A stretch of DNA of 32,000 bases, taken from positions 120,001 to 152,000 of the forward strand of contig NZ_CP036280.1 of assembly GCF_007748075.1 (NCBI RefSeq), written 5' to 3'. The notes beneath the pieces are model-generated. The model saw only the letters and a program-made list of their open reading frames with translations, did not search any database and was not told where the DNA came from. The position numbers and the translations under genes are program-made. Of this stretch, positions 13,084 to 14,339 are shown piece by piece (within the stretch, counting starts at the first letter, position 1; the number at the start of each line of letters is the position of its first letter). Source of the DNA: Mucisphaera calidilacus. GTDB lineage: Bacteria; Planctomycetota; Phycisphaerae; Phycisphaerales; Phycisphaeraceae.

Positions 13084-13404
13084 ATGAATCACCCCCGAAC
13101 GTCCATCGCACTCATCATCGGGCTCATCGCCCAGTGCTTCGCCGTCGCCTGCGCCCACGCCGCCCCCTTCGTGAACCACAAGCTGGGCTGCGACAGGCCC
13201 TGCTGCTGCGGAGCCCCCTGCGAGGCGGACGACACACCCGCAACCGACCCTGCCGACGCCTCGCCGGCCCTCCCGCCTATCTTCACTCACCTGCCGACCG
13301 GCCCCACCTTCACGTCCGTCGTTCTGCCCAATTTCTCTGATCCCACCTCGCCACGCACTTCTGTCACATTCTCCCGCGCTACGCTTTGCATCTGGCTCCA
13401 TTAG
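13084..13404 (+). CDS. secreted Cys-cluster protein, type A copy 1 (106 aa)
   Basis: Signal peptide MNHPRTSIALIIGLIAQCFAVACAHA, then GCDRPCCCGAPCEADD, a Pro-rich tail, and C-terminus LCIWLH. Paralogous to 13992-14339. Weak SD. Confidence 0.6.
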   Translation: MNHPRTSIALIIGLIAQCFAVACAHAAPFVNHKLGCDRPCCCGAPCEADDTPATDPADASPALPPIFTHLPTGPTFTSVVLPNFSDPTSPRTSVTFSRATLCIWLH

Positions 13405-13455
13405 TGACCTACTCCATGTAAGTCCAGTCTTATCGTTCGGATCGCCAAAGATCCC

Positions 13456-13470
13456 GCGGCAACGTGCCGC
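13456..13470. promoter_or_regulatory. GC-rich dyad GCGGCA-ACG-TGCCGC in the A1-B1 spacer
   Basis: Perfect 6-bp inverted repeat ending 39 nt upstream of the B1 ATG. A related element sits at the equivalent position upstream of B2 (14371-14394). Confidence 0.3.
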
Positions 13471-13508
13471 AACAAAATCCGACCAATCAGTCTTTTAAGG
13501 AGAAAGTG

Positions 13509-13676
13509 ATGAAAACCATCCTGACCCTCGCCGCTGCCTCGACCCTCGCACTCACCCTCGGCATGGCCACCGGCTGCGAAGCCATGGGCGGCGAAGAGGG
13601 CGAAGCCATGCTCTACTCGAGCGACGCGACCACCGAATGCAAGTGCGACGGCTTCGACTACGACGCGATCAAGTAA
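13509..13676 (+). CDS. Cys/acidic-rich micro-lipoprotein, type B copy 1 (55 aa)
   Basis: Strong SD AAGGAG 6 nt upstream. Product MKTILTLAAASTLALTLGMATGC carries a lipobox, followed by EAMGGEEGEAMLYSSDATTECKCDGFDYDAIK. Paralogous to 14430-14645. Confidence 0.65.
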   Translation: MKTILTLAAASTLALTLGMATGCEAMGGEEGEAMLYSSDATTECKCDGFDYDAIK

Positions 13677-13773
13677 TCCCGGCAGCAACCCATCGATCCG
13701 CGATCCATCAGACCGAACCCGTCAGCGGGCTCATCACGGATCCCCTGAAGCTGTCAACAACACCTGATCCCGC

Positions 13774-13804
13774 GCGACCCGTACACCACGTGCGGGTCGC
13801 TTTT
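13774..13804 (+). terminator. Rho-independent terminator after module 1
   Basis: Stem GCGACCCGTAC, loop ACCAC, stem GTGCGGGTCGC (11 bp with one G-U pair), followed by TTTT. Confidence 0.7.
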
Positions 13805-13991
13805 CATAGAGCCGTCGCCGCACGCGTCGCAACGCCATCACAACCTGGTGCGCCCGATCGATCCAACGAAGCATCACCGGTAATCGCGCCGGCAATTCCC
13901 TCTGCGCGCAGCAAGCCATATCGGGATGAGGCCTGAGAATCTTTCCGGATCCCGTATACTGCTGGTTGGGAAGACCGCAATCGGGAACACG

Positions 13992-14339
13992 ATGAAGCAC
14001 TGGATCCTGCTGGTCACGTTCATCTCCGGGACGCTCCTCCACGGCGCTGCGCTTGTCTGCCACGCCTCGCCTGCTGTCGGACCCGCAGAAAGCACCTGTT
14101 GCTGCATCCTCGCCTGTCCCTGCGATGACGACTGCTCGGCCGACGCCACTCCGCCCCTGCCGCCCGTTGACGAGACCGACCCGATCCTGCTGCCGAGCCG
14201 AGGCGAAACACCCGACCTCACGCAGCCGGTCCTGCGCATCGTCACGCTGACCCATCCGCTCTCAAGGTCTTTCCAGGACGCCGCCGCGCGTGCTACGTGT
14301 CGAACCTCCCGGCCGCTTCTCTGCGTCTGGCGTCACTAG
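13992..14339 (+). CDS. secreted Cys-cluster protein, type A copy 2 (115 aa)
   Basis: Signal peptide MKHWILLVTFISGTLLHGAALVCHA, then STCCCILACPCDDDCSAD, a Pro-rich tail, and C-terminus LCVWRH. An alternative upstream ATG exists at 13926. Confidence 0.6.
   Translation: MKHWILLVTFISGTLLHGAALVCHASPAVGPAESTCCCILACPCDDDCSADATPPLPPVDETDPILLPSRGETPDLTQPVLRIVTLTHPLSRSFQDAAARATCRTSRPLLCVWRH

Follow-up and report, generated by a model that had tools for sequence, protein, structure and literature searches.

Predicted exported Cys-cluster proteins with a conserved C-terminal peptide beside an HMA lipoprotein and an outer-membrane barrel in Mucisphaera calidilacus

Introduction

How bacteria export copper across the outer membrane without a CusCBA-type pump is poorly understood, and the envelope biology of the Planctomycetota is largely uncharted. 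Among described soft-metal binders, SilE and PcoE are small (about 100-140 amino acids (aa)), Sec-exported and disordered in the apo form; they belong to copper/silver resistance gene sets and are presumed to bind monovalent soft metals at multiple sites. Bacterial metallothioneins (SmtA/BmtA, MymT) and eukaryotic Cu-thioneins are cytoplasmic and fold only around their metal, with Cu(I)-thiolate chemistry to be expected; the SmtA/BmtA type has about 55 aa and a Cys/His fold resembling a zinc finger. Here, we analyze a stretch of 32,000 nucleotides (nt) from Mucisphaera calidilacus (contig NZ_CP036280.1, positions 120,001 to 152,000 of the forward strand), referred to in full length as the window, which encodes two small Cys-cluster proteins, A1 and A2. 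These A-type proteins belong to a three-gene module whose other two components are an HMA lipoprotein resembling CopZ/MerP and an outer-membrane barrel protein (OMP) of the COG4313 type; the Mucisphaera clade adds the lipoproteins B1 and B2. We propose, with a confidence that stays slightly short of an even chance, that A-type proteins are metallothionein-like envelope Cu(I) binders working with the HMA lipoprotein and the channel, and that their C-terminal tail serves in docking or tethering.

Bufferins are Sec-exported, Cys-containing periplasmic metallophores of copper stress that belong to the ribosomally synthesized and post-translationally modified peptides (RiPPs); their loci hold MNIO (DUF692) and DUF2063 proteins, and their Cys residues are converted to thiooxazoles (PMC11626156). 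FapF moves unfolded polypeptides, its operon also encodes the Sec-exported substrates, which includes the C39 peptidase FapD, and secretion needs a periplasmic coiled-coil domain (PMC6173800). COG4313 channels have been linked to hydrophobic small molecules and bind hydrophobic ligands (PMC4493636). In the literature, no description of an HMA-lipoprotein/COG4313 copper system or of a periplasmic metallothionein was found.

In their mode of action, A-type proteins would come closest to SilE and PcoE or to metallothioneins. They resemble SilE and PcoE in being small, apparently Sec-exported, predicted to be disordered and probably set in a copper-related gene context. However, SilE and PcoE use Met/His motifs (repeated MxxH/HxxM) and have neither Cys nor a conserved extreme C-terminal peptide, whereas A-type proteins contain 6-12 Cys, mature A1 and A2 lack Met and no Pfam match connects them to that family. 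CxC, CC and CxxxC clusters within a short polypeptide are shared with metallothioneins, but these have no signal peptide, Pro-rich spacer or conserved tail; no Pfam or NCBIfam match and no PDB relative was found, leaving a Cys-rich composition as the common trait. A predicted signal peptide (with putative cleavage) and conserved Cys, as in bufferins, occur in all A-type members; MNIO (DUF692) and DUF2063 are absent from the neighbor tables (±5 kb) of five loci, and the cluster in the window is flanked by M20 peptidase and MurB genes. The module follows the same chaperone-to-exit-duct logic as CopZ/MerP-CopA and CusF-CusCBA, having an HMA protein and, in some relatives, CsoR and a P1B ATPase. 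It differs in that the HMA protein is a lipoprotein, that the exit is a COG4313-type barrel and not a TolC/CusC duct or RND pump, and that nothing in those systems corresponds to the A-type protein.

Results

A1 and A2 are paralogs and are judged to be genuine genes

Six plus-strand genes (A1, B1, A2, B2, HMA and OMP) lie between the divergent M20 peptidase gene and murB. The features of the two A-type genes, in coordinates of the window, are as follows (a slash marks the predicted cleavage site).

13084..13404, plus strand: A1, A-type protein with Cys cluster, predicted to be exported, 106 aa (open reading frame (ORF) and sequence; paralog of A2; class-1 hidden Markov model (HMM) E = 3e-12)
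13084..13161, plus strand: predicted Sec signal peptide of A1, aa 1-26, ...FAVACAHA/A (read from the sequence)
13189..13221, plus strand: Cys cluster of A1, C36-x3-C40-C41-C42-x3-C46 (alignments)
13384..13401, plus strand: C-terminal tail of A1, LCIWLH (stop codon 13402-13404)
13992..14339, plus strand: A2, A-type protein with Cys cluster, predicted to be exported, 115 aa (ORF; BLASTP against A1; family HMM E = 7e-17)
13992..14066, plus strand: predicted Sec signal peptide of A2, aa 1-25, ...GAALVCHA/S (read from the sequence; putative cleavage)
14097..14135, plus strand: Cys cluster of A2, C36-C37-C38-x3-C42-x-C44-x3-C48, followed by an acidic patch (alignments)
14319..14336, plus strand: C-terminal tail of A2, LCVWRH (stop codon 14337-14339)

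A1 and A2 are related over their full length (BLASTP, E = 3e-07, 32% identity) and end in ...SRATLCIWLH and ...SRPLLCVWRH, respectively. Since B1 and B2 are paralogs as well (BLASTP, E = 3e-05), the A-B pair has undergone tandem duplication. Both A-type N-termini resemble Sec signal peptides (CAHA/A in A1, VCHA/S in A2). In A1, an n-region, a hydrophobic core and small residues at -3/-1 are recognizable by eye, and an AlphaFold2 (AF2) model of A2 places a helix at residues 2-18, within the predicted signal peptide, with high predicted local distance difference test (pLDDT) values. The sequences, signal peptides and paralogy are thus as described in the original prediction, which had been made from the letters of the DNA alone.

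Neither A1 nor A2 is preceded by a strong Shine-Dalgarno sequence, and the gene tables of the two closest genomes omit the orthologous ORFs, as might be expected if A1 and A2 were untranslated chance ORFs in GC-rich DNA. This explanation is scarcely tenable and is effectively refuted already. The signal peptide, the Cys block and the exact C-terminus are conserved frame-specifically in about 35 divergent loci, and several A-type members have been called as genes in other assemblies. The GC content at third codon positions is 0.80 in A1 and 0.78 in A2, similar to that of the neighboring genes (0.77-0.86), while long antisense ORFs reach 0.60-0.63. Third codon positions differ most between close A-type orthologs, and within the tail the codons vary synonymously (Leu CTT/CTC/TTG/CTG, Cys TGC/TGT, Val GTC/GTG, Arg CGT/CGG/CGA/CGC). 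On the comparison between loci above all, and on the codon data, A1 and A2 are genuine genes under selection at the protein level. A Cys-codon attenuation leader was ruled out, the ORFs exceeding 100 codons and carrying signal peptides.

A-type genes form an unnamed family next to HMA-OMP pairs

For the OMP of the window, the protein collection holds 103 homologs, which bear the labels Mucisphaera, Phycisphaeraceae, Phycisphaerales or Planctomycetes. Using an alignment of the OMP only, 80 metagenome loci were fetched, which left the sampling blind to the A-type motif; the region upstream of each HMA gene was then scanned. By synteny, 35 distinct A-type sequences were found, in Phycisphaerae-type contigs. 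In the two closest genomes (loci L001 and L002) the entire neighborhood is syntenic with the window, and the gap that precedes the B-type and HMA genes holds an unlisted ORF with the same architecture and tail: ...ACCCAVSCGCAAPC...STLGIWRH in L001, the nearest ortholog, and ...SCCCALTCGCGTSC...ASLCVWRH in L002, each followed by the stop codon. More distant assemblies have, upstream of HMA-OMP, ORFs reading ...ACCMHACKC...LLCVWRN and ...VCCAGGCEC...VFCVWRI up to the stop. The A-type ORFs absent from the returned gene tables are the following.

L001, 3674-4108: A-type ORF
L002, 3835-4203: A-type ORF

The fetched DNA, 547 kb with 5,838 ORFs, was searched with the family HMMs; these matched A-type ORFs only, and every match lies just upstream of an HMA-OMP pair. 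The association with HMA and OMP partners that had been suggested for A1 and A2 therefore extends to the whole sample. Most homologs keep both the Cys block and the C-terminal motif, so that this comparison does not refute the original prediction.

Protein databases yielded little more. A2 is present in the protein collection (P0001), yet a word-indexed homology search with A1 and A2 returned only the window's own proteins, and an exhaustive HMMER search of 1.84 billion representatives added a single true relative (P0107), next to a repetitive cadherin-like protein that is a spurious match. For the genome collection, a four-sequence alignment gave too narrow a pattern, and the scan recovered only the metagenome-assembled genome (MAG) of Mucisphaera sp. 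that had already been found. Neither A1 and A2 nor ten further, diverse members have a Pfam or NCBIfam match at E <= 1 or a PDB sequence relative. HMA (PF00403), a ferredoxin-like βαββαβ domain with a GMxCxxC loop, is among the families that they fail to match, and AF2 shows no folded domain. On this sequence evidence A1 and A2 belong to an unnamed family, in line with the earlier failure to recognize a named one. Since gene tables omit A-type ORFs and the exhaustive protein search found almost no relatives, the family is under-annotated and under-represented in protein databases.

A Cys cluster and a spacer predicted to be disordered

All members have a Sec-type signal peptide, as read from the sequences, with a basic n-region, a hydrophobic core of 10-15 residues and small residues at -3/-1, often with Pro or Gly at -6 to -4. 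Cleavage would leave a mature protein of some 80-120 residues, made up of a thiolate cluster, an acidic, Pro-rich spacer and a hydrophobic C-terminal peptide. The Cys-dense block, which occupies aa 36-46 in A1 and aa 36-48 in A2, is followed by the acidic, Pro-rich stretch. The original prediction regarded a CCC run as the element shared by A1 and A2. This did not hold, as the two CCC runs are not homologous positions: C36-x3-C40-C41-C42-x3-C46 of A1 aligns to C38-x3-C42-x-C44-x3-C48 of A2, which brings the CCC of A1 onto C-P-C of A2. Invariant in the four aligned Mucisphaera-clade sequences is C-x3-C-x-C-x3-C, and what is conserved is a cluster of the CC-x3-C-x-C type. Across the family the core reads CC(C)-x2-4-C-x-C, to which some members add insertions and further CxC or CC pairs; Met is almost absent and His is rare. 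The spacer is acidic and rich in Pro, with a loosely conserved P-A-V-P...R-D/E motif and a variable region.

The AF2 model of A2, computed with a 10-sequence alignment, has a mean pLDDT of 50.8. Only the signal helix is confident, while the rest stays below 50. The mature A-type protein is therefore predicted to be intrinsically disordered, as had been anticipated for its Pro-rich spacer. A-type proteins were also considered as lipoproteins, but conservation of the Cys at the signal-peptide end is confined to the Mucisphaera clade, and a proper lipobox is missing there. A MerT/MerE-like membrane Cys pair was rejected, given that the Cys cluster lies 10-25 residues past a cleavable-looking signal peptide.

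The C-terminal tail is a short hydrophobic peptide at the free C-terminus, as judged from the aligned members

The tails fall into two classes. Class 1 (24 distinct sequences from several deep OMP clades) ends in [RQ]-[AS]-x-[LF]-C-[VI]-W-x-x-COOH, with the following occupancy, counted from the C-terminus.

Position -6: Leu/Phe, 21/24 (88%)
Position -5: Cys, 22/24 (92%)
Position -4: Val/Ile, 19/24 (79%)
Position -3: Trp, 21/24 (88%)
Position -1 (last residue): variable, T in 15, H in 4, I in 2, and N, S and K in 1 each

Class 2 (11 sequences from one OMP clade) has an aliphatic end, ...LE(T/N)x(I/L/V)LL(I/V)-COOH, without Trp and with Cys at -5 in 4 of the 11. The two classes are related by hhalign (93% probability, E = 4e-07) via the signal peptide and the Cys cluster, a score that may be compositional in part. 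The conserved C-terminal element comprises only about 9 residues.

The original prediction had described the final residues LC(I/V)W(L/R)H as invariant. This is true for A1 and A2, but the nearest ortholog ends in LGIWRH, and in more distant members the last residue is N, I, S, K, Q or, in most cases, T. Terminal His occurs in 4 of the 35 sequences, all from the Mucisphaera clade (the window included), and the tail Cys is replaced by Gly in two members (L001 and L050). For each of His, Cys and Trp there are members that do without it, while hydrophobicity is kept in all tails. Across these alignments, what unites the tails is a short, hydrophobic peptide fixed to the free C-terminus and not a set of ligand residues. 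The broader claim, a conserved extreme C-terminus against a drifting middle, fared better: the frequencies at positions -6 to -3 in class 1 support selection on the tail while the middle drifts.

C-terminal sorting signals (PEP-CTERM, LPXTG, GlyGly-CTERM and the C-terminal domain (CTD) of the type IX secretion system) are built either from a motif, a transmembrane helix and a basic tail in succession or from a folded CTD of about 80 aa. A-type proteins of class 1 stop two residues past the Trp and have neither. Nor do they end like an outer-membrane β-barrel protein, whose β-signal is a C-terminal strand of alternating hydrophobic residues closed by F/W/Y, the last residue being T/H/I/N/S/K rather than aromatic and AF2 showing no barrel; the neighboring OMP, by comparison, ends in ...LRFLF. 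CaaX-like prenylation was rejected, as the Cys stands at -5, the protein would be periplasmic and no transferase was found.

The HMA-OMP pair is a copper-associated envelope module

The two partner genes of the window are the following.

14638..14994, plus strand: HMA lipoprotein, 118 aa, lipobox IAGC, metal site GLSCPLC (Pfam HMA E = 4.9e-12)
15070..15879, plus strand: OMP, outer-membrane 12-stranded β-barrel of the COG4313 (PF13557)/FapF structural class (AF2, Foldseek and PF13557 in homologs)

The HMA protein of the window has NCBIfam matches of the CopZ/MerP type. Nearly every HMA protein of the module is a lipoprotein that combines a flexible linker with a G(M/L)SCPLC site. The OMP was modelled by AF2 with 12 long strands (pLDDT 92.2), and its best Foldseek matches are FapF (5o68/5o65; 5o68 E = 1.4e-08, TM-score 0.61-0.64) and the COG4313 channel Pput2725 (4rl8, TM-score 0.63). 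PF13557 is found in many homologs, and the PTG(D) motif discussed for COG4313 channels (PMC6173800, PMC4493636) persists in the family consensus; the OMP of the window itself has no Pfam match at E <= 1 and shows IPSWD in place of PTGD. Barrels of the COG4313 family have 12 strands, about 270-320 aa and an N-terminal segment before strand 1. COG4313 channels (Pput2725, SphA, TcpY) and FapF have the fold predicted for the OMP, but the known members have been connected with small hydrophobic compounds or with amyloid subunits rather than with metals (PMC4493636, PMC6173800).

Seven distinct loci have, instead of an A-type gene, an ORF for a CsoR-family repressor (PF02583) upstream of HMA-OMP, in which the Cu(I) signature C...H-x3-C is present. 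L041 and L028 have the order CsoR, HMA lipoprotein, OMP and P1B ATPase, the last with an HMA domain and the Cu(I)-type motifs CPC/YN/MxxSS. In L004, where an A-type gene is present, genes for an OEP protein and a multicopper oxidase follow immediately downstream, and in L023 a DUF305 protein is encoded downstream. Because of the CsoR, P1B ATPase and multicopper oxidase neighbors, the HMA-OMP pair is therefore considered a copper-associated envelope module, and we infer that A-type proteins share this copper context. CsoR-family repressors with an unusual N-terminal extension holding a CCGC or CGCGC cluster are encoded by these ORFs.

L017/L018, 1997-2506: extended CsoR
L027-L029 and L069, 2012-2476: extended CsoR
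L038/L041, ending at 2527/2509: extended CsoR
L052, ending at 2510: extended CsoR

Cys-rich segments also occur on lipoproteins of the module

B1 and B2 represent a second unnamed family of small lipoproteins, in which a conserved (D/E)AM(I/L)L-SS(E/D) segment follows the lipobox and the C-terminal part is rich in Cys; no credible Pfam match was obtained for it. Its members, all from the Mucisphaera clade, are encoded between the A-type and HMA genes.

13509..13676, plus strand: B1, small lipoprotein, lipobox ATGC, C-x-C motif (paralog of B2)
14430..14645, plus strand: B2, Cys-rich lipoprotein, lipobox TGGC, ...CSTSCDTPC...ACCGGCGG (ORF sequence; orthologs in L001/L002)
L001, 4263-4538: B-type member
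L002, about 4343-4558: B-type member

The Cys-rich lipoproteins of L001 and L002 take the position of B2, and the L001 member has repeated SCCGSCG units and a His-rich end. In four loci that lack an A-type gene (L032, L036, L037 and L049), the HMA lipoprotein bears a Cys-rich C-terminal extension of about 30 residues (CxxCxCxxCxC...CxxxCxC), for example ...ICTICACKTCSCVLADFRCGSGCSCKS, and the HMA genes end just before the OMP gene at about 3001. The Cys cluster thus appears to be fused to the chaperone in these loci.

Discussion

The reading that we place just below an even chance would work as follows. The Cys cluster of the A-type protein would bind a soft metal in the periplasm, most probably Cu(I), and exchange it with the CxxC site of the HMA lipoprotein, after which the channel would carry the metal over the outer membrane. 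The C-terminal peptide would not be a metal site but would hold the floppy protein at a partner or the membrane. The sequences and loci directly show the family, its architecture and tail logo, its strict synteny and the copper context of related modules; that the protein is exported and binds metal, which metal this is and what the tail does are deduced from these features. The Cys-rich polypeptides of the module come in three forms, namely lipid-anchored (B-type), fused to the C-terminus of the HMA lipoprotein, and free (A-type), and the conserved hydrophobic tail is found on the free form only. From this pattern, and from the dispensability of His, Cys and Trp in some members, we infer a docking or tethering peptide in preference to a Cys/Trp/His ligand set. 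L-C-V-W-R resembles an interfacial or groove-binding peptide.

Several observations weigh against this proposal. The CsoR/CopA context is seen in loci lacking A, and most A-containing loci, including the window, have no nearby metal gene. An A-type ORF is present in about 36 of about 56 distinct HMA-OMP loci; because about one third carry none, the A-type gene is an accessory to the module. A comparison of OMP and HMA alignment columns between A-containing and A-less loci, itself weak evidence, revealed no residues constrained only where A is present, as a docking site might require. Furthermore, a periplasmic protein with 6-12 free thiols is prone to oxidation, and known periplasmic Cu(I) sponges use Met/His instead of Cys.

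The alternatives differ in what they assign to the tail, the Cys residues and the barrel. In one of them, also listed in the original prediction, the tail itself is a metal site, in which Cys(-5), Trp(-3) (by a cation-π contact, CusF-like) and the terminal His/carboxylate bind Cu(I), or the Cys exchanges metal with the HMA CxxC site. The frequency of Cys and Trp in class 1 (22/24 and 21/24), the terminal His of the window and its nearest relatives and the CxxC site of the partner fit this view. However, one thiolate and one indole do not make a self-sufficient Cu(I) site, and, because His is clade-specific and Cys and Trp are dispensable (Gly in L001 and L050; aliphatic ...LLI or ...LLV ends without Trp and mostly without Cys in class 2), we consider a ligand role of the tail unlikely. 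Conservation placed exactly at the free C-terminus, with two residues after the Trp in class 1 and an aliphatic X-Φ-COOH end in class 2, may instead suggest a motif read by a housekeeping periplasmic PDZ protein or a tail-specific protease (Prc/Ctp, HtrA), as a turnover or metal-status signal. Carboxylate-anchored conservation is typical of motifs read from the C-terminal end (PDZ, Tsp), and the neighbor tables of the five loci show no third conserved gene that could be a dedicated partner. Yet class-1 ends such as ...WRT, ...WRH and ...WLK differ from classical ligands of PDZ domains or Tsp, the loci hold no gene for a protease or PDZ protein apart from a trypsin-like ORF beside one A-less locus, and the idea is purely analogical, all of which makes it improbable.

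The barrel invites a different explanation, in which the A-type protein is an unfolded secretion substrate of a FapF-like transporter, as a disposable or secreted Cys-rich carrier of metal, and the C-terminal peptide its recognition or export signal. The OMP matches FapF best, a transporter of unfolded polypeptides co-encoded with Sec-exported substrates (PMC6173800), and the A-type protein is predicted to be disordered and strictly syntenic with the barrel. The OMP nevertheless lacks the periplasmic coiled-coil that FapF needs (PMC6173800), having only about 15 mature residues before strand 1, and no FapD-like C39 peptidase is present in the neighbor tables (±5 kb, five loci). The consensus of the OMP family keeps the PTG motif of COG4313, a family tied to small hydrophobic molecules (PMC4493636), and about one third of the modules have no A gene to secrete; hence, we hold a role as secretion substrate to be unlikely. 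About as doubtful is a combined version, in which the A-type protein is a thiolate-rich carrier that is loaded with Cu(I) by the HMA lipoprotein and threaded through, or presented via, the FapF-like barrel, with the tail [LF]-C-V-W-x-x as the signal; if true, metal would take a protein-based route over the outer membrane, distinct from RND/TolC efflux and from small-molecule metallophores. Very unlikely is that the Cys residues form disulfides or are enzymatically modified, making the protein a disulfide-knotted structural or secreted peptide or a RiPP-like precursor such as a bufferin and not a thiolate metal binder. The combination of Sec signal peptide and conserved Cys recalls bufferin precursors (PMC11626156), and mature Cys counts are often even (6 or 8), but no MNIO/DUF692, DUF2063, radical-SAM or other maturase gene occurs within ±5 kb in the five Pfam-annotated loci, AF2 finds no fold, and the spacing and number of Cys vary widely, unlike in disulfide-knot families.

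Under the proposed Cu(I)-binder reading, the module is a testable candidate for a copper route from the periplasm to the outside, which in some lineages lies inside csoR...copA operons. It also connects metal homeostasis with the COG4313 channels, which until now had been associated with hydrophobic organics. The unusual features of the A-type proteins are the presumed periplasmic thiolate chemistry and a sharply conserved C-terminal peptide, and a conserved tail on an otherwise disordered protein provides a convenient experimental handle.

Further features of the window

The remaining features in and around the gene cluster are the following.

11742-12986, minus strand: M20 peptidase gene, divergently transcribed flank of the cluster
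13774..13800, plus strand: terminator-like hairpin 3' of B1, 11-bp stem with 8 GC pairs and a T-rich tail (consensus match only)
13933..13960, plus strand: promoter-like site 5' of A2, 9/12 matches, weak (consensus match only)
15008..15035, plus strand: terminator-like hairpin between the HMA and OMP genes, 11-bp stem with 9 GC pairs (consensus match only)

Because of the hairpin after B1 and the weak promoter-like site before A2, the sequence suggests that A1-B1 forms a transcription unit separate from A2 onward. A strong AAGGAG precedes the ATG of B1, and the ATG of the HMA gene overlaps the 3' end of B2 by 8 nt. The GC-rich hairpin at 15008-15035 could give the soluble and the channel components different expression levels. 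An Rfam scan of positions 12000-16500 (E <= 1) matched no RNA family; hence, the tail-encoding sequences and intergenic gaps do not correspond to a known RNA element.

Upstream of the cluster, at 9939-10603, lies an ORF pair for a Phd/YefM-type antitoxin and a PIN (VapC-like) toxin, which recurs in L002 with Pfam PhdYeFM_antitox and PIN matches. Across the whole window (1-32000) the GC skew is -0.23, a very strong compositional skew of the strand that is independent of gene orientation: at third codon positions, C is about 5 times as frequent as G in plus-strand genes, and G about 2.5 times as frequent as C in minus-strand genes. The syntenic locus of the Mucisphaera sp. MAG has the same genes with the opposite skew (+0.26), and more distant relatives are near 0. 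Such values point to a replication-strand bias of mutation that is unusually strong in this lineage.

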